Positions 15,481 through 44,240 of a stretch of DNA of 64,000 bases are shown here, in pieces. This DNA is from a virus. Made by a program: the position numbers and the translations under genes. The stretch lies in IMG/VR virus record IMGVR_UViG_3300025949_000016. One strand, 5' to 3'. Positions within the stretch are counted from its first letter, which is position 1; each line of letters begins with the position of its first letter. Under the pieces are notes generated by a model. That model saw nothing but the letters and a program-made list of their open reading frames with translations. It had not been told where the DNA came from and did not search any database.

Positions 15481-15555
15481 AATATTGTAAGGATGTTTCC
15501 ACGCATCCAGTACGTGTTTTAATTAAAAACGAATCATTTCCTATTCGTAGTTTAT

Positions 15556-15648
15556 TTATTTAATTTTAATTGGCTTTTTATCAACTGGAAGAGTATCATA
15601 AGGAGTACTACATCCACCGCTACCACAACTTGCTTTAATTATTTGCAT
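15556..15648 (-). CDS. 30-aa leader/small peptide MQIIKASCGSGGCSTPYDTLPVDKKPIKIK (not in track)
   Basis: ATG with A/T-rich leader ~40 nt downstream of the leftward promoter; TAA stop. Confidence 0.5.
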   Translation of the reverse strand: MQIIKASCGSGGCSTPYDTLPVDKKPIKIK

Positions 15649-15690
15649 AATTATTTAAATTTTTATCAAGCAATTTCAATATCGCTTAAG

Positions 15691-15722
15691 TTAATATACA
15701 AAATATTATTTAAACTACCAAA
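15691..15722 (-). promoter_or_regulatory. Leftward promoter for the structural/secreted module (variant -7 box)
   Basis: AATTTGG then 20-nt spacer then TATATTAA; same -33 context and spacing as the other promoters. Confidence 0.5.
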
Positions 15723-15742
15723 TTAATTTTTAAAATTAATCT

Positions 15743-16723: not shown

Positions 16724-17029
16724 ATGTCAATAGCAGATAAAATCCGCCGATTACCACAAACAGTTAATTTTCAAGGAGTCGAGTTCGACTTTGCTATAAT
16801 AATAGAAAGTCCAGATGAACTAAAGTTATCGTATGATGTAGCCGAAGCTGATATATTTAGTCCTCATTATGGAGATGTAAAAAGTTATGGATCATGGCAC
16901 AATCCATTTGAAAGCGATAGTTTTCAAGGATTTCTATGGTTAAGAGAAGGTATAGAAAATGATGACGATCTAGAAGAAGCTTTATGTGATGTATATAATT
17001 TTCTAAAAAAGAATGATTTTATAAAATGA
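16724..17029 (+). CDS. Acidic hypothetical protein
   Basis: 101-aa ORF in operon. Confidence 0.6.
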   Translation: MSIADKIRRLPQTVNFQGVEFDFAIIIESPDELKLSYDVAEADIFSPHYGDVKSYGSWHNPFESDSFQGFLWLREGIENDDDLEEALCDVYNFLKKNDFIK

Positions 17030-17289
17030 TTAAATTAAATAAAATAGAACCGCAGACAGTTGAAGTATTTGATCCTCAGAATAATAGTTTAGGATTCTTA
17101 AATGAATATGAATTTCTAGATTTAAGAGCCCAAATAGCAGAACAAAGAGTTGAAGGTTATTATTATATGTTCAATGAAGATCAAATATTTATTGATAAAG
17201 ATGGTAGAAGTTGGCAACCAAATAAGTTATTTAACTCAATTGAAAATAGTTTAGTAAGAATAATGACCGCAAATTTTTCTAAGAAGTAG
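17026..17289 (+). CDS. Hypothetical phage protein
   Basis: 87 aa; LGFLNEYEFLDLRAQI..GYY..IDKDG. Confidence 0.65.
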   Translation: MIKLNKIEPQTVEVFDPQNNSLGFLNEYEFLDLRAQIAEQRVEGYYYMFNEDQIFIDKDGRSWQPNKLFNSIENSLVRIMTANFSKK

Positions 17290-17677
17290 ATAACTTATCT
17301 GCCACTTTATTATATCTTCTCGGTATCCATTCAAATTCTATATGATTAAATAGTGGTAATAGTTGTTTTTCAATATAAGAATAATAAGCAGTTAGTTTAT
17401 TATCTCTTACTTTATAAGTGCCATTTATAATATTAATAATAAGTTGAGAGTCCCCATTAACTTTTATTGACTTTTCTTGAAGATTATTTTCTAAAAGTAA
17501 TTTTAATAGACAATAAAGAGCTTCGAATTCAGCAACATTATTACTATTAGTAAGCCGCGGTTTAATCTTTTTAGAAAAGGTTATTTCATTTACGTTATTA
17601 TAGATGACACATCCAATACCCATTGTACCTCCTGGATTATCGGAGCAAGATCCGTCAAAGTATGCATTTATTTGCAT
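17279..17677 (-). CDS. rnhA: Ribonuclease HI
   Basis: YFDGS..NPG, SNNVAEFEAL, GDSQL, WIPRRYNKVADKLS: all four acidic catalytic residues present. Confidence 0.92.
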   Translation of the reverse strand: MQINAYFDGSCSDNPGGTMGIGCVIYNNVNEITFSKKIKPRLTNSNNVAEFEALYCLLKLLLENNLQEKSIKVNGDSQLIINIINGTYKVRDNKLTAYYSYIEKQLLPLFNHIEFEWIPRRYNKVADKLSTS

Positions 17678-18045
17678 ATTATATTATCTCTTATAAATTT
17701 ATTAATATTTAGATTTGGAACATCTTCATTTTTAACTCTAATAACTTGACAACCTTTAATTTCGGTTAACCATTTATCACGTAACTTATCCTTTTCTATT
17801 ATTTCAGGAGTATTATGGTATCCTCCATCAACCTCTATTATAACTTTATAAGGTTTTGGTATGTATATATCCGCAATTATAAAGGTTTTACCATATCCTA
17901 AAAACCCCTTCTGAAATTTTGCTTTTGGAAATTTAGATTTTATCTTTTGATACATTCTTATTTCCATTTCAGTAGCATTTTCACGCAATTTATTTTTATT
18001 CTTTGCGCACCAAGATTGTTGATTCGAGTAAAATTTAGTACACAC
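17668..18045 (-). CDS. DUF559/Vsr-like endonuclease
   Basis: LRENATEME..FQK..IADIY..IIEVDGGYH..DKLRDKWL..GCQVIRVKN. Confidence 0.85.
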   Translation of the reverse strand: MCTKFYSNQQSWCAKNKNKLRENATEMEIRMYQKIKSKFPKAKFQKGFLGYGKTFIIADIYIPKPYKVIIEVDGGYHNTPEIIEKDKLRDKWLTEIKGCQVIRVKNEDVPNLNINKFIRDNIICK

Positions 18046-18059
18046 AACTATTAATAATT

Positions 18060-18390
18060 TTTATTAAAAAAATCGCAGTAAATAAATTACCTATGGCAAT
18101 TTGAGAGGGTACTAAACGAAGTTATCAAGACAAAACCCCCTATAATCCCCCTACTTTATAGTAGAAAGATTAAAAAGAAATAACATCGTTTAAAATTACC
18201 TCCGTATAATTTTCGTGGGGCTCTAGGTTACGCAAGTTTAGAAGAATACCTAGATTTAAACATGATAATATTGTTTAGCACAACGCACTCAAGCTATAGT
18301 TCTACCTATGCACCACCCACTTGAGCAATCTGTCCATGGGATACAGCATTCTTATCACAACGGTATAAGATAAGTAATATATTACTGAAC
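18060..18390 (-). ncRNA. Candidate structured RNA / long leader (~340 nt), family unknown
   Basis: No listed ORF; about eight hairpins, several needing G-U pairs that form only on the minus strand (18143-18155 with 18160-18172); outer stem 18113-18125 with 18180-18192; starts just downstream of a consensus promoter. Confidence 0.65.
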
Positions 18391-18394
18391 AATA

Positions 18395-18426
18395 CAAAGG
18401 TACAACTAATTATTGAATTTTCCAAA
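18395..18426 (-). promoter_or_regulatory. Bacteroidota sigma-A-type promoter (-33/-7)
   Basis: TTTG-N20-TACCTTTG on the minus strand. Confidence 0.8.
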
Positions 18427-18454
18427 TTTATTTTTATAATCAAATGAATAATTT

Positions 18455-18895
18455 ATGGGGTGTCATACTTGGTTTTATAATTTATCCGAATTAGATAATT
18501 GGGATAAAATAAAAGAAAAAGCTTATGAATATCTTAAACAAATGAAAGATAGAACAGATGATTATCATAAGCAACATGATCAAATGATGAGATATTGCAT
18601 TGATAATAAATTAGATACAATTGTAGGAGAATTTGTTTCAGCTTTTGGAAATCTTAGTACTTATCACAATGAAAAAATATATACTAAAGTAGAAGGTTTA
18701 TATGATCTTTTTAGAATTGGTGGATATCCAGAAGATAAACTTTTATCTTATGATGAAACTTTAGAATATATGAAAAAATACTGTGAAAAATATAAAGTTC
18801 CATTTGAATCTCATTTTGGAAATATTGAAGAGATAAAAGATGAACTATTACAATTTTGGAATCAATATCCAAATGGATTAATTGAATTTGGCTAA
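18455..18895 (+). CDS. Hypothetical phage protein
   Basis: MGCHTWFY..DLFRIGGYPEDKLLSYDE..FWNQYPNGLIEFG. Confidence 0.7.
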   Translation: MGCHTWFYNLSELDNWDKIKEKAYEYLKQMKDRTDDYHKQHDQMMRYCIDNKLDTIVGEFVSAFGNLSTYHNEKIYTKVEGLYDLFRIGGYPEDKLLSYDETLEYMKKYCEKYKVPFESHFGNIEEIKDELLQFWNQYPNGLIEFG

Positions 18896-18906
18896 AACTT
18901 AAATTT

Positions 18907-19071
18907 ATGAAAAAATTTTTTGGATATTTAATAATTTTCCTTATATTTGCATCCATCTTTGTAGGTATGGTTATTATAGGAGGGTGGTTGGCAACAATTC
19001 TTACATGGGTTATTACTATTATTATTTGTGGTGGAATAGCTATTGGAGTATGGATGTCAACAGAAGATTAA
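18907..19071 (+). CDS. 54-aa two-TM membrane protein (not in track)
   Basis: MKKFFGYLIIFLIFASIFVGMVIIGGWLATILTWVITIIICGGIAIGVWMSTED. Confidence 0.65.
   Translation: MKKFFGYLIIFLIFASIFVGMVIIGGWLATILTWVITIIICGGIAIGVWMSTED
18919..18949 (+). promoter_or_regulatory. Possible sigma-A-type promoter inside the small ORF
   Basis: TTTG-N19-TATATTTG. Confidence 0.4.
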
Positions 19072-19460: not shown

Positions 19461-19697
19461 ATGTCAGAGATATTAATTAGTAGAAAAGATCCTAATAAAG
19501 GTTTTAAAAATGGAGATTTGGTAGAAAAAGATGGTGAGGTTGGTTATATATATGGTCGCAATCATAAAAATGACTTTGCAGTTAATGTCTGTGTATTAAC
19601 TAGAATGAATGATAAAGATGATAGTCTTAAATGGCAAAATTGGAATATAAATCAAATAGAACTTTTTCATGGAACTATTACAATAAAAAGTGAATGA
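19461..19697 (+). CDS. Small beta-barrel-like protein, paralogue family A
   Basis: ATG 19461; FKNGDLV..GEVGYI..W..IELFHGTITIKSE. Confidence 0.65.
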   Translation: MSEILISRKDPNKGFKNGDLVEKDGEVGYIYGRNHKNDFAVNVCVLTRMNDKDDSLKWQNWNINQIELFHGTITIKSE

Positions 19698-20728
19698 AAA
19701 TTTTAACGCTTGTAACCTCTACTAATGCGTGTGATTACCATCGTGTTGTTAATCCTTTTAGATTCTTACCATTAGAAGATAGAGAATCTTTAAAGATTAT
19801 AGAACACGATCAACAAGTGTCTGCAATGGCATTTAAAAACGCTGATTTAGTAGTATTTAATAGATATCCGCCGTTTGACTTAGATCATATACTTTCTTTA
19901 CGTGATAGATTTAAATTCAAAATATGGGTAGATATAGATGATTATTGGAAACTTTATCCTGGACATTATCTAGAAGCTCATTGGAAAAGAGATAAGACAG
20001 AACAAAAAATAATTAAAGCATTAAGTATTGCAGATATTGTTACTGTTACTAATAGAAGATTGTTAAGAGCTGTTTTACCTATTAACGAAAAAGCTAGAAT
20101 AATACCTAATGCTATCCCAATAGGTTTTGATCAGTTTTTATCTCAAAAACAAGAATCTACTACCGTTCGTTTCATGTATGCAGGAGGTCCAAGTCATGGG
20201 AAAGATTTAAAAAGTATAGAGAAATTTTTTACTTTAATGGGTAAAAATGCATGTACTTATAAAAATGTAGAGTTTATTCTAGCTGGATATAGTGATCGTT
20301 ATAAAGAACCTGCACTTCACGAGATGAATGATATAATGTCAAGAGCTCCTAATTATTCTACCTTATTGGGACTACCAGTTAATAAGTACATGAATCATTA
20401 TAATTTTGCAGATGTGTGTTTATCTCCTTTGATCAAAAACGAGTTTAATGAAATGAAATCAAATTTAAAGATAATAGAGGCAGGTTGTATGCGCTGTCCT
20501 ATTATATGCACAAATATGTTTCCATTTCTAGAAGATGAAAAAATGAGAGCTAAAGGAGTCTTTTATTGCAATAATGCAGCAGATTGGAATGATGTTTGTA
20601 CTTATTTAATTAAAAACCCAAATCTTATTGTAGAGTACGGTAACCAACTCTATGATTACGTAAAAGAACATTATGATCTTTTAGAAATAAATAAAATAAG
20701 GAGAGAGATTATTAACTCATTTAAATAA
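19694..20728 (+). CDS. GT-B fold glycosyltransferase
   Basis: YHRV..P, VDIDDYW, ADIVTVT, IIPNAI, YAGGPSH..DL, DVCLSPL..FNEMKSNLKIIEAG. Confidence 0.85.
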   Translation: MKILTLVTSTNACDYHRVVNPFRFLPLEDRESLKIIEHDQQVSAMAFKNADLVVFNRYPPFDLDHILSLRDRFKFKIWVDIDDYWKLYPGHYLEAHWKRDKTEQKIIKALSIADIVTVTNRRLLRAVLPINEKARIIPNAIPIGFDQFLSQKQESTTVRFMYAGGPSHGKDLKSIEKFFTLMGKNACTYKNVEFILAGYSDRYKEPALHEMNDIMSRAPNYSTLLGLPVNKYMNHYNFADVCLSPLIKNEFNEMKSNLKIIEAGCMRCPIICTNMFPFLEDEKMRAKGVFYCNNAADWNDVCTYLIKNPNLIVEYGNQLYDYVKEHYDLLEINKIRREIINSFK

Positions 20729-24313: not shown

Positions 24314-24345
24314 TTTGGTAATTTCGTTTATTTGTTCTAACTTTG
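24314..24345 (+). promoter_or_regulatory. Sigma-A-type promoter for the replication operon (probably leaderless mRNA)
   Basis: TTTG-N20-TAACTTTG; ATG 4 nt downstream. Confidence 0.8.
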
Positions 24346-29957: not shown

Positions 29958-30362
29958 ATGTTAATGCAATCTAAGAAAAAAGTTAAGAAAGTTAATTCTC
30001 AATTAAAACCTAAACCAACTCATTTTTATCTTAGAATATTTTCAAGGCATCCTAGTACAGAAAAGATTAGACATAAAATACTTGTTCCAAAAGTTAAAGC
30101 TGTTTATAGACATGGATCTACCACTGTATCTAATTTTGAATATGAAGTTAATAGTATTGACTGTATAAAGAATAGTGCTGATAAACTATTAATGAAAAAA
30201 TGCTTTGATAAAGCAGAAGTTCATCATGCTCCTTGGTTTCATATGAGTGAGATTGAATCTAAGAAGAAAGAGTTTGAAGAATTTCTAAAAAAGATTGATT
30301 TTGAAAAAGATAAAGAGTCTTTCTTAATTATTAAGAATCGTTGGGGATCTAGAGGAGTTGGT
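29958..30362 (+). CDS. ATP-grasp ligase, exon 1 (135 aa)
   Basis: SRHPS, RHGSTT, NSADKLLMK, IIKNRWGSRGVG glycine loop; ends at U30362. Confidence 0.85.
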
Positions 30363-31260
30363 GAAATATCTTTTGGTTAATTGAAAGATTTTTCGTATAT
30401 TGTTATATGGAAGAAAAAATAACAATATATGCATTGATTGATCCAATATCACTAAAAATTAGATATATTGGTAGAACAAAATGCTCCCTTAAAAAAAGAT
30501 TAAGAGAACATATAAGTAAAGCTAAAAATAATTATAACAATACTCATAAATCAAATTGGATTAAAAGTCTTTTAAGGATTAATCTAAAACCTTTTATAAG
30601 AAAACTAACTATTATAGATGGGTGGACAGAATCTCATAAATTTGAAAGATATTTAATTAATAAATATAAGCATAGGCTTTTGAATCACGATGATAGAGGT
30701 GAAGGTGAGATGTTTAGAGAAATTTCACTTGAGCAAAGAAAAAAAATTTCAAATACTTTAAAAGAATACTTTGAAATAAATAAAAATAATCTATCTTGGT
30801 GTAAGAAAGTATATGCATATTCTTATGATGGAGTGTTTATAAGTGAGCATCCATCAATAAGACAAGCAAGTAAGGATTTAAGAGTAAAGGAAAGAACTAT
30901 AAGAAATAGTTGTTATAATAAAACAAAATATCCAAAAATTGGTCATAAACAATTTAGCTTTATAAAAGTAGAATCAATGAAAAATTGGACAATAAAAACA
31001 GAGAGTTAATTGCCGTGTTATGTGGTAACACATAATATTATTATTGAGTAAAATCGGTGAATTCTGAGAAGAAAATACCGAGCTAATTTCTGAAAATAAA
31101 GAGTCAGAAACAGTGTAACGCATAGGAACTGAAACTAGAAATAGAATATAATGTTCCCAAGAGTGCTCGACATCCTAATGGGATGAAAATATATGCTGAG
31201 CTTACAAGAATTTGAATTGTAAGAACTAAAGGATAAAAAGCCTTTAGGATAACAAAACTG
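30363..31260 (+). mobile_element. Group I intron (898 nt) in the ATP-grasp gene
   Basis: 5' exon ends in U and intron ends in G; P1 AGTTGGT/GTTAATT with U-G at the splice site; core AAATCGGTGAA..AATACCGAG; P3 GAGTA/TGCTC; P7 GCATA/TATGC; P8 CATCC/GGATG; P9 hairpins; splicing restores the frame GSRGVG|NYLIK. Confidence 0.9.
30407..31009 (+). CDS. Intron-encoded GIY-YIG homing endonuclease with NUMOD-type C-terminal modules
   Basis: IYALIDP..RYIGRT..RLREH..E..LLN; SLEQRKKISNTLK; VYAYSYDG..SIRQASKDL. Confidence 0.88.
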   Translation: MEEKITIYALIDPISLKIRYIGRTKCSLKKRLREHISKAKNNYNNTHKSNWIKSLLRINLKPFIRKLTIIDGWTESHKFERYLINKYKHRLLNHDDRGEGEMFREISLEQRKKISNTLKEYFEINKNNLSWCKKVYAYSYDGVFISEHPSIRQASKDLRVKERTIRNSCYNKTKYPKIGHKQFSFIKVESMKNWTIKTES

Positions 31261-31734
31261 AACTATTTAATAAAAACAAAAGTAGATCTTGATAAATTCA
31301 TTAAAGATAAATCAAAGAGTCTTGAAAATTATATTATTGAAGAATATAAAAACTATAGCGTAGAATATAGGTTACATGTAAGTAGAGAAGGATGTTTCTA
31401 TGCTTGTAGAAAGGTTCTTAAAAAAGATACTCCTAAGGAAAATAGGTTTCAAAGACATGATGATAATTGCTCTTGGTTAGTAGAAACCAATCCAGGATTT
31501 AATAAGCCAGAAAACTGGAATGAAATAGTAGAAGACTGCAAGAAAGCAGTAGTTGCAATGGATGCTGATGTGTTAGCTTTTGATGTTAAGTGTACTTCTA
31601 TTAAGGATAAGAAGGATAAAAAGTGTAGATTTATTCTTATAGAAAGTTGCAGTGCAGCATCTTTTGGAGATAAAACTGCGGAAAAATACATTCAAGAGTT
31701 ACCTAAAATATTAAAATTAAAGTACGGACTATGA
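31261..31734 (+). CDS. ATP-grasp ligase, exon 2 (157 aa; not in track); spliced product 292 aa
   Basis: NYLIK..YIIEEY..EYRLHV..RK..FDVK..FILIESCSAASFG; TGA overlaps the next ATG. Confidence 0.85.
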   Translation, partial: NYLIKTKVDLDKFIKDKSKSLENYIIEEYKNYSVEYRLHVSREGCFYACRKVLKKDTPKENRFQRHDDNCSWLVETNPGFNKPENWNEIVEDCKKAVVAMDADVLAFDVKCTSIKDKKDKKCRFILIESCSAASFGDKTAEKYIQELPKILKLKYGL

Positions 31735-32420
31735 AAATTATAGATGAAGTAAGTTCAAAATATAACCTATTTGAGATAGGACATGGGCAAAGAGAGGTTC
31801 AATTTGCATTTATAGATGGAAAAACTGGTAAAACGATAACTCCATTCTGTAGATGCAAGGATTATTTTAATGATATGTTCTTTTCAAATAAGATAGGTAA
31901 GGAACTAAGTATTTATGGATTTCATTGGAAGCCTAATCAAGACGAAGGTATTTTAGATAGAAATACAATGACAGTGGCTGTTAGATTAAGGGATCAACAT
32001 ACTAAGAATATCTATGATCTTAAAGAAGAAGAGATACAATCGGTAAGAAAATTAATGCAACAAGTTTCTAATAAAGCAGGTCTTGGTAGAATAATTGTTA
32101 GAGTATGTGAAGAAAATAAGAATATTATCGTATACTTTAATAGAAAATGGGCAGATACTCCTTATCTAAATAGTGCATTTTTCTTCTTTATTAGACTTGG
32201 ATTTACGTATAAAAATGGAGAAGATATATTATCTTGGTATAATAAAGGAGAAAAATTCATATCTCCCAATGATCAATTCTATTTCAAACAAGGTTCTTCT
32301 AGAATAAAGGATATATTAGAAGGTAAACTTGACTTAAATCAGAAATATGAAATGTATACTAATGCTAATATTCATGGAGCATCTGGGTTAATTGGTTATA
32401 AAGATTATAAGGTAGCTTAA
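31731..32420 (+). CDS. Hypothetical protein in the ligase cluster
   Basis: 229 aa; QFAF..FCRCKDYFND..IYGF..W..PYL.S..IRLG..IH..SG. Confidence 0.65.
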   Translation: MKIIDEVSSKYNLFEIGHGQREVQFAFIDGKTGKTITPFCRCKDYFNDMFFSNKIGKELSIYGFHWKPNQDEGILDRNTMTVAVRLRDQHTKNIYDLKEEEIQSVRKLMQQVSNKAGLGRIIVRVCEENKNIIVYFNRKWADTPYLNSAFFFFIRLGFTYKNGEDILSWYNKGEKFISPNDQFYFKQGSSRIKDILEGKLDLNQKYEMYTNANIHGASGLIGYKDYKVA

Positions 32421-39186: not shown

Positions 39187-39726
39187 ATGACATTAGTAGA
39201 TTTAAAATCCACCCTACAAAAACTATTAGATGATGACACTATAGATATTAGATTGAATGATATAAGTGTAAGTGACAGTGAGATATTAAATACTAAGCTT
39301 CTAAATGGAAAAAGATTAGTTTATCCTTATCCAACAGATGTATTTTTTCGAATTAACATTAGTGATATAAATCAAGATTTTATATCATTTAATTTAAAAG
39401 AATTTAATACTTGTTGTGGTAAATTAATCTTACATGGCATTCGTTATACGGATGCATACAATGATTATAAAGATAAAATGAAAGGTAAAGAGTTAAGTAA
39501 AGAACTCTTCAAAGAAGCAATTAATCTAATATTTAGTAGTTTAGTGGAAATAATGGAAGGATTGGATTATAGCTCTTTATCTTTTATTGTATCTGAAATG
39601 GAGCAAAAAAAATTATTTGAAATTTTAACTCATTTAGGTTATAAACCTGTTAATAGTTTTAGTAACAAAAGAATGCCTTTGAAAAATAAATGTCATGAAT
39701 ATATAATAAATTTGGAAAATTCATAA
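39187..39726 (+). CDS. GNAT-fold-like protein, paralogue family B
   Basis: FNLKEFNTCCGKL..Q..LGYKPVNSFSNKR. Confidence 0.55.
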   Translation: MTLVDLKSTLQKLLDDDTIDIRLNDISVSDSEILNTKLLNGKRLVYPYPTDVFFRINISDINQDFISFNLKEFNTCCGKLILHGIRYTDAYNDYKDKMKGKELSKELFKEAINLIFSSLVEIMEGLDYSSLSFIVSEMEQKKLFEILTHLGYKPVNSFSNKRMPLKNKCHEYIINLENS

Positions 39727-39742
39727 ATATTCCGTACATTTG
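39711..39742 (+). promoter_or_regulatory. Sigma-A-type promoter (probably leaderless mRNA)
   Basis: TTTG-N20-TACATTTG; ATG 4 nt downstream. Confidence 0.8.
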
Positions 39743-42560: not shown

Positions 42561-42592
42561 TTTGGTGATTTCAAGAATTTGTTTTACCTTTG
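42561..42592 (+). promoter_or_regulatory. Sigma-A-type promoter
   Basis: TTTG-N20-TACCTTTG. Confidence 0.8.
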
Positions 42593-43960: not shown

Positions 43961-44217
43961 TGAATTTTCACGAAGACTATATAGAAGAGTGGATGCCTCA
44001 TCCGCCTGAAAAAATCATACATAAAAATCTTTACTATCTAGATAAAATAAAAGAGATTGAATTACAAATTAAATGGTTAACTTGCCAAAAATTTCATCAT
44101 GATCCTGATATTGATGATCAACTAAGAGCGGATAAAGAAGCTGAGTTAGAAGATAGTTTAAGCTGGCATAAAGCCAAATTAAAGCAAATAAATAATAGAA
44201 ATAAAAAATTTTGTTAA
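43957..44217 (+). CDS. Hypothetical coiled-coil protein
   Basis: 86-aa ORF. Confidence 0.5.
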   Translation: MMNFHEDYIEEWMPHPPEKIIHKNLYYLDKIKEIELQIKWLTCQKFHHDPDIDDQLRADKEAELEDSLSWHKAKLKQINNRNKKFC

Positions 44218-44240
44218 TTCAATTATTTATCATATCTTTG
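44210..44240 (+). promoter_or_regulatory. Sigma-A-type promoter for the DNA polymerase gene
   Basis: TTTG-N19-TATCTTTG. Confidence 0.75.

Follow-up and report, generated by a model that had tools for sequence, protein, structure and literature searches.

A candidate structured RNA gene with a variable nuclease slot in a group of crAss-like phages from soil

Gene content of the locus

The window analyzed here is a 64,000-nucleotide (nt) stretch of viral DNA (IMG/VR record IMGVR_UViG_3300025949_000016), and our subject is a short minus-strand locus within it, in which a promoter is followed by a non-coding region, considered below as a candidate structured RNA, and then by two small genes that encode a DUF559 (Vsr-like) nuclease and a type 1 ribonuclease H (RNase H) (Table 1). 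A preliminary description, made from the letters of the window without database searches, had singled out this locus as the sole minus-strand unit inside a long plus-strand block, and it is indeed the only credible one between 15743 and 47103. Several other elements of that description stand as well. The promoter named there matches the Bacteroidota consensus TTTG-N19-TAnnTTTG. The ~340 nt said to be non-coding contain no credible open reading frame (ORF) from 18046 to ~18390, and the GC content of this region rises to 37-40%, against ~25% around it. The two genes behind it were described as overlapping, and their ORFs do share 10 nt.

Table 1. Features at and around the minus-strand locus (window coordinates; L016 is a related locus introduced in the text; aa, amino acids)
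Feature	Position	Strand	Basis or remark
Bacteroidota-type promoter, -33 TTTG and -7 TAnnTTTG; precedes the RNA	18395..18426	-	exact consensus match
Candidate structured non-coding RNA, class A; ends predicted	18064..18390	-	no credible ORF, GC rise, match to L016
Hairpin CUUAUC/GAUAAG, conserved ACCGUU in loop	18351..18374	-	L016 keeps 6/6 pairs, with 2 double changes
Hairpin	18287..18326	-	largely broken in L016
Hairpin	18257..18277	-	L016 keeps 5/6 pairs
Hairpin UCUAGGU/ACCUAGA	18222..18254	-	L016 keeps 6/7 pairs, with one C-G to G-C swap
Hairpin	18192..18213	-	largely broken in L016
Pyrimidine arm pairing with the first of two G5 tracts	18136..18171	-	present in minimum free energy and centroid folds
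3' hairpin AAAUUGCC/GGUAAUUU (18084-18102), then U7 run (18066-18076)	18066..18102	-	weak terminator at best
DUF559/Vsr-like PD-(D/E)xK nuclease, 125 aa, GTG start	17668..18045	-	PF04480
Type 1 RNase H, 132 aa, intact; start overlaps DUF559 stop by 10 nt	17279..17677	-	PF13456/PF00075
Convergent 87-aa early gene; far edge of the two-gene insertion	17026..17289	+	82-aa homologue in L016 (6603-6851)

The RNA region in related phages

The comparison covers 13 distinct loci, the window included, from a group of ~145-kb soil crAss-like phages. One of these loci, L009, was found through a large protein collection that held a single homologue of the window's DUF559 protein, at 56% identity. The glycosyltransferase gene (GT; 19694-20728 in the window) served as the handle for fetching the 11 further loci, its homologues being numerous at 44-61% identity and located on contigs of up to 148 kb. 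A DNA search of INPHARED with the locus produced no match, and IMG/VR scans with DUF559, the neighboring 146-aa protein, GT and two RNA motifs returned only distant DUF559 genes and one contig that was already known.

In all 13 loci, a promoter of the same type is followed, in the same place and antisense to the early genes, by 175-495 nt without an ORF. The promoter could be aligned in six related loci, where an upstream motif, a spacer block and the -33 element occur in the order AAATTTGG ... GTTGTA ... TTTG, often in nearly identical form, and a looser form is found in the remaining loci. No convincing equivalent of the RNA was detected near the distant homologues of GT (83 loci at 30-40% identity).

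The slot behind the RNA is variable. It is empty in nine of the 13 loci (L013, L014, L015, L016, L017, L097, L098, L099 and L102) and is filled in the other four with differing nucleases, a presence/absence polymorphism at one site in syntenic genomes. The slot holds a DUF559 gene in L009, an RNase H gene in L103 (51% identical to that of the window), a gene for a 219-aa HNH endonuclease in L100 and, in the window alone, DUF559 together with RNase H. L009, an 87-kb contig, carries its DUF559 gene without RNase H and, like the window, antisense to the conserved GT block; the same promoter and ~290 nt of non-coding sequence lie upstream of the gene. In L016, the counterpart of the convergent 87-aa gene adjoins the RNA directly at its 3' end, so that the window differs by a clean ~780-bp indel comprising DUF559 and RNase H. 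In L103, the distance from the last conserved motif of the RNA to the RNase H start is ~35 nt, too short to hold a separate promoter.

A 959-nt sequence from a second metagenome (L012, JGI 3300020070) contains a 99% identical DUF559 gene and an RNase H gene; the same phage and cassette are therefore present in at least two samples.

Covariation and RNA classes

Grouping with nhmmer yields class A (the window and L016), class B (L009, L014 and L100) and class C/D, with seven sequences (L013, L015, L098, L099, L097, L017 and L103); the RNA of L102 is a short form that has a twin G tract in common with class A. Class C/D aligns well from sequence alone (MAFFT). RNAalifold missed the long-range helices in this alignment, and we therefore turned to an exhaustive helix search, with column shuffles as the null. 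The exhaustive search for stacked, fully paired columns identified 7 perfect helices, five of which have at least two double-changed positions, compared with 0 perfect helices in 30 column shuffles of the alignment. Nine curated helices comprise 48 pairs, with 98.3% of cells paired and 32 pairs changed on both sides; on four of five measures, all 500 shuffles fell short of the observed value, on the fifth one of them reached it, and controls in which the partner was slid by 1-3 columns were 37-46% paired. Because the curated helices were picked from the same alignment, the column shuffles of the whole search are the fairer control.

Two long-range helices of class C/D cross each other and form a pseudoknot. 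The first is found as GUUUAU/AUAAAC, GAUUAA/UUAAUC, AUUAUU/GAUAAU and other variants, and the second as CCUCAGA/UCUGAGG, CCUGAGA/UCUCAGG, CGUGAGA/UCUCACG and CCUCAAG/CUUGAGG. A probable loop-loop contact covaries as well (AGUUU/AAAUU to AACUC/GAGUU), three additional covarying helices were judged by eye, and L103, added later to the set, fits the same helices. On the reverse strand, three of the seven perfect helices are lost through G-U pairs, which indicates that the C/D RNA is read from the promoter strand; the preliminary description had used G-U pairs to argue for structure on the transcribed strand, and this argument holds in the sister class. In L013, L015 and L098, the 3' end of the RNA is a terminator made up of a GC-rich hairpin and a U run, and the combination of promoter, fold and terminator argues for an independent RNA gene.

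In class B (three sequences), several hairpins keep their stems while the sequence changes, for example, CUAGUU/AGCUAG, UCAGUU/AGCUGA and CCUGUU/AACAGG. Classes A and B have three short islands in common, the longest of which matches at 16 of 18 positions, unlikely by our rough estimate to be a chance agreement. The order of the islands is swapped between the two classes; circular permutation was entertained as the cause and rejected, the orders being mirror images rather than rotations. With the promoter and non-coding stretch present in all 13 loci and very strong covariation in class C/D, the initial proposal of a promoter-driven RNA under structural selection is sustained.

Rfam 15 gave no match for the whole window at gathering thresholds, and searches at E <= 10 with window 17000-19000, L098 and L097 returned only noise (E > 0.5). 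ARAGORN detected no tRNA or tmRNA in the window or inside the RNA regions of the 12 related loci. The idea of a tRNA gene split by an intron was dropped for want of an ARAGORN match and of D-arm or T-arm halves. Keyword searches of the literature found no description of such an RNA.

The RNA of the window

The class A comparison consists of two sequences only, the window and the stand-alone RNA of L016, which are 63% identical over 282 aligned positions. The seven inverted repeats listed in the preliminary description are all present at the positions given; because the genome has a GC content of 27%, such repeats alone are weak evidence, and the structure of the window's RNA is not established from the sequence of the window alone. 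As conserved structure, the hairpins fared unevenly: three of the seven are kept in L016, two are largely broken, and the remaining two are the G-tract arm and the 3' hairpin treated below. The loop of the hairpin at 18222-18254 holds the island AUUCUUCUAAACUUGCGU (18230-18247), which recurs nearly exactly in the class B RNA of L009.

The twin G tract of the window reads G5-AUUAUA-G5 (18136-18151, minus strand). The hairpin between the pyrimidine arm and the G tract (18144-18171) is kept in L016 only in kind, in a different register. A twin G tract with the same type of spacer is found in three of the 13 RNAs (window, L016 and L102), and a looser tract (G-rich, AU-N-UA, purine-rich) lies towards the 3' end in ten. 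The 3' hairpin is not alignable with L016, and a terminator scan of the window did not call this hairpin and its U7 run, which makes read-through into DUF559 plausible. From these comparisons, the window's RNA corresponds in position and promoter to an RNA whose structure is demonstrated, and it shows some covariation of its own; it would also double as the leader at the 5' end of the nuclease mRNA. The same fold as in class C/D cannot be claimed for it.

The DUF559 and RNase H proteins

The DUF559 protein scores 45.8 bits against PF04480 (E = 6e-12; gathering cutoff 20.6) and contains the D...E-V-D-G-x-x-H core of that family; in the alignment of its relatives, I-E-V-D-G-G is invariant, as are H and K-D..R-D.W-L-T. 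A profile of the family matches PDB 3hrl at 1e-14 and, weakly (0.005), 3r3p, annotated as 'Mobile intron protein', which we take to be the Vsr-like homing endonuclease I-Bth0305I. For the RNase H, the scores are 65 bits against PF13456, 42.7 bits against PF00075 and 103.7 bits against the NCBIfam model for ribonuclease HI. It aligns over its full length with RNase HI of Sulfolobus tokodaii, with the D/E/D/D positions kept, and retains YFDG, NNVAE, GDSQL and AD-LS in comparison with PDB 3aly and 2ehg; the four carboxylates are the catalytic residues of RNase HI. The Pfam scores and the kept core residues thus bear out the initial reading of the two genes as encoding a Vsr-like nuclease and an intact RNase HI. 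The DUF559 protein would most likely behave as a Vsr-like site-specific or homing-type endonuclease, and the most likely role of the RNase H is that of an accessory in replication or R-loop clearing.

The identities of the DUF559 and RNase H proteins to their homologues are close to those of GT (56% and 51%, respectively, compared with 55% and 50%, from two sequences per gene). This equality with the backbone fits vertical descent. The HNH protein of L100 scores 20.7 bits against the IscB model, for which the cutoff is 175, and the match is confined to the HNH domain; the possibility that this protein combines HNH with a DUF559-like domain was discarded, the hhalign comparison not being significant.

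A probable RNA gene with optional nuclease passengers

The reading that we favor, at a probability of roughly 0.55, is that a structured non-coding RNA of a kind not yet described is encoded here by a free-standing gene of its own, with the nuclease genes as optional passengers. In nine loci the RNA is found without any nuclease behind it; the RNA can thus do without DUF559 and RNase H, and its tie to the nucleases appears to be facultative. Occupation of the slot by three unrelated nuclease types resembles the pattern of free-standing homing-type genes beside an RNA locus.

Under this scheme, the host RNA polymerase would start at the Bacteroidota sigma-A-type promoter and produce a discrete RNA of 320-450 nt, which would fold compactly and act in trans, a mode of action suggested by the promoter, fold and terminator. 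In the window, the weakness of the 3' hairpin and U7 run would allow read-through, yielding a single mRNA for DUF559 and RNase H, and the two proteins may be translationally coupled via the 10-nt overlap. Nuclease genes would, in this manner, colonize the RNA gene and borrow its promoter. As to the role of the RNA itself, we lean, tentatively, to a protein-binding function in host takeover or counter-defense. The grounds for this lean are the location in a hypervariable early island with RNA ligase-, NAMPT- and GNAT-like neighbors in relatives, the evolution of the RNA as discrete, non-alignable classes, and the attraction of homing-type nucleases to the locus, as in the T4 tRNA region.

A number of observations weigh against this interpretation. 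The folding energy of the transcribed strand of the window's RNA is unremarkable (z = -1.48; 9 of 100 shuffles fold equally well), and the opposite strand folds better relative to shuffles (z = -2.83); class A consists of two sequences, and its covariation is modest. The RNA classes are not cross-detected by nhmmer, and the window's RNA escapes a covariance model built on the 3' domain of class C/D, so that the case for a single family would rest on the promoter, position, size and a few short islands. The 125-aa DUF559 protein lacks an obvious separate DNA-binding domain of the kind typical of most homing endonucleases. Furthermore, backbone-like divergence together with the retention of catalytic residues points to long-term residents under selection rather than to recent selfish arrivals.

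Finally, all four slot occupants encode enzymes that cleave nucleic acids, and such nuclease-only occupancy could reflect a functional tie to the RNA. The RNA would, in that case, be a platform for interchangeable slot nucleases (Vsr-like, HNH or RNase H), with a host enzyme serving where the slot is empty; for example, the folded RNA could direct or license cleavage, or RNase H could process its 3' end into a primer. We regard this possibility as improbable; if it is true, crAss-like phages possess an RNA-dependent system for nuclease action or priming that is new in kind.

Alternative explanations

Set against an RNA gene with facultative nuclease passengers, an R-loop-primed replication origin, the other option named in the preliminary description, also seems improbable. 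At such an origin, the transcript would hybridize via its G tracts and the AT-rich DNA, and an RNase H, of either the phage or the host, would trim it to a leading-strand primer, on the model of ColE1 RNA II, T4 oriF/oriG and mitochondrial CSB II. In keeping with this idea, two phages whose RNAs differ in class both encode an RNase H in the slot, and the cumulative GC skew reaches its minimum within ~3 kb of the locus. The RNAs of the window, L016 and L102 also share the twin G tract, looser purine forms of which occur in other loci, and in the window and L009 the RNA gives way to an AT-rich spacer. ColE1 depends on the host RNase H, and the lack of a phage RNase H in most relatives therefore does not count against an origin. 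However, three class C RNAs (L013, L015 and L098) end in ordinary intrinsic terminators, class C/D is devoid of G tracts, and the pseudoknot with at least nine covarying helices far exceeds the known needs of primer formation. A search for iterons and direct repeats near the locus found none, and the skew minimum falls at the divergent transcription point at ~15.5 kb, where it is confounded by gene orientation.

The divergent region that holds the skew minimum is a non-coding stretch of 262 nt (15481-15742), from which structural genes run leftward and early genes rightward. The adjoining leftward gene (82-87 aa) has, in relatives, an upstream promoter of the type found at the RNA.

A divergent form of a known ribozyme or other RNA beyond the reach of the Rfam models, be it group I-like (including GIR1-like capping), RNase P-like or tmRNA-like, appears quite unlikely. 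Endonuclease genes do lie behind the RNA in some loci, and a check of the group I core, made for class C/D only, found crossing covarying helices in an order that mimics P3 / P4-P6 / P7 / P3' / P8 / P7'. Two elements of the same class do not fit this core: what would be P6 and the P7 5' strand are enclosed by an extra covarying helix, and the position of J8/7, single-stranded in group I, is taken by a hairpin. Exons are lacking as well: the check for group I or GIR1 exons found no flanking minus-strand ORF or tRNA halves, the promoter is directly 5', and a terminator or the convergent gene is directly 3'. Given the absence of exons and the two misfit helices, the group I reading was dropped; tRNA-like ends are likewise missing, and no Rfam match emerged even at E <= 10.

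Of still lower probability, in our assessment, is the RNA-nuclease module put forward in the preliminary description; in the form considered here, the RNA would guide, activate or scaffold whichever nuclease occupies the slot, loosely like IscB with HEARO/omega RNA. This proposal draws on the fact that every gene in the slot encodes a nuclease, on the predicted co-transcription of RNA and nuclease, and on the weak match of the L100 HNH protein to the HNH region of the IscB model. The suggested comparison of structure upstream of homologous DUF559-RNase H pairs lends it no support, as none of the other loci has both genes, and the pairing of nuclease with RNA does not hold either: the DUF559 gene of L009 follows a class B RNA and the RNase H gene of L103 a class C/D RNA, not the class A of the window, so that homologous nucleases stand behind non-homologous RNA classes. 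In nine of the 13 phages, moreover, the RNA stands alone. RuvC, PLMP and other IscB/TnpB parts are missing, and there is no Rfam HEARO match. A variable guide segment within a fixed scaffold had also been suggested as a feature to look for; none is seen, the variation being spread across the helices as compensatory changes with no guide-like block. An RNA-guided nuclease is accordingly unlikely.

Least probable of all is a purely cis-acting leader or insulator that regulates the nuclease genes or blocks antisense or read-through transcription of the early operon. In its favor, the RNA would form the 5' untranslated region of the nuclease mRNAs in four loci; against it, the nine loci without a downstream gene keep the promoter and, in class C/D, a complex covarying fold with a terminator.

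Neighborhood, host and significance

The DNA polymerase of the phage is closest to those of crAss-like phages, at ~30% identity. More distant relatives of GT (30-35% identity; L104, L105 and L106) are located on contigs of Chitinophaga sp., a Taibaiella metagenome-assembled genome (MAG) and an Edaphocola MAG. The promoters and the GT contigs point to a Bacteroidota host, and the sequence matches suggest Chitinophagaceae as hosts of the wider phage group.

A scan of the window with the promoter consensus found further matches upstream of plus-strand gene starts at 24314, 39711, 42561 and 44210, and a fifth, at 18919, inside the ORF 18907-19071. The first four promoters (24314-24345, 39711-39742, 42561-42592 and 44210-44240, all on the plus strand) end 5-22 nt before start codons, and the DNA polymerase gene is among those with an exact promoter this close. 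Very short leaders are expected for these four mRNAs, in contrast to the ~330-nt leader at the locus under study.

The variable early island beside the RNA contains diverse genes in the relatives. These include a NAMPT/NAPRTase-type gene (L014, 6263-7816, plus strand) and RNA ligase genes (PF09414; L099, 7465-8004, plus strand, 9e-13; L097, 6101-6643, plus strand). The 146-aa neighbor in the window (18455-18895) matches RNA ligase weakly (E = 0.06), and GNAT-like matches near the RNA in relatives are weak, below the Pfam cutoff. Functions of the NAMPT and RNA ligase types are typical of host takeover or counter-defense. GIY-YIG and HNH-NUMOD4 genes are present as well, all on the minus strand (L015, 6366-7004; L097, 5316-5849; L100, 4218-5012; L102, 6044-6502), and the early/late boundary looks like a hot spot for homing-type endonuclease genes.

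A tRNA-Arg(UCU) gene lies just downstream of GT in L009 (6549-6621, minus strand) and L097 (9043-9116, plus strand); the 64-kb window has no tRNA. The plus-strand block of the window also includes a 720-nt ORF-free gap (31010-31730), and an Rfam search at E <= 10 over 30300-31800 gave no Intron_gpI and no other credible match, a result that neither confirms nor excludes a divergent intron there.

Few large RNAs have many covarying helices and pseudoknots, and those that do have repeatedly proved to be ribozymes, scaffolds of ribonucleoproteins or self-assembling structures. The significance of the locus lies, in the first place, in an elaborately folded and undescribed RNA, forming one family or several, that appears to be fixed by position and promoter across a phage group; the non-alignable classes and the hypervariable early location make it a candidate for a host-takeover or counter-defense RNA.

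Comparison with known systems

Among systems in which a structured RNA adjoins a small nuclease gene, IscB with HEARO/omega RNA is similar in this arrangement. It differs in that the window's proteins, of 125 and 132 aa compared with ~400 aa or more, lack the IscB/TnpB architecture, in the absence of a HEARO match, and in that the RNA here is mostly alone and the nucleases are interchangeable and mutually unrelated. ColE1 RNA II and CSB II are likewise promoter-driven structured transcripts with G tracts, and an RNase H is encoded nearby in the window; here, however, no antisense RNA I is found, terminators are present in the sister class, and the fold is much more complex.

GOLLD, ROOL and the phi29 pRNA are, like the RNA described here, long, elaborately folded RNAs of phages or prophages that are recognized by covariation. 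In the phi29 pRNA, structure is retained although the sequence diverges almost past alignment. Our RNA has no Rfam match and differs from these RNAs in size, fold and host phylum.

With respect to the nuclease, the family of Vsr-like (EDxHD) homing endonucleases has been described (PMC2677866). I-Bth0305I resembles the DUF559 protein in having a Vsr-type PD-(D/E)xK core in a mobile phage nuclease. The match is weak, however, and the window's protein, at 125 aa, has no recognizable DNA-binding extension and is not encoded in an intron or split-intein locus.

The tRNA region of phage T4, where the free-standing homing endonuclease SegB resides in a tRNA cluster (PMC2330249; PMC13096335), offers a further parallel. 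In both cases, a phage non-coding RNA locus has a small free-standing nuclease alongside that is patchily distributed among relatives. The present case differs in that the RNA is something other than a tRNA, the nuclease belongs to the Vsr-like and not to the GIY-YIG type, an RNase H accompanies it, and cleavage and homing are proposed by analogy. The T4 nuclease can drive the inheritance of flanking RNA alleles, and nucleases beside the RNA gene described here bear on the inheritance of phage RNA loci in mixed infections. Since the nucleases are not obligate partners, the locus is best studied as an RNA gene first.

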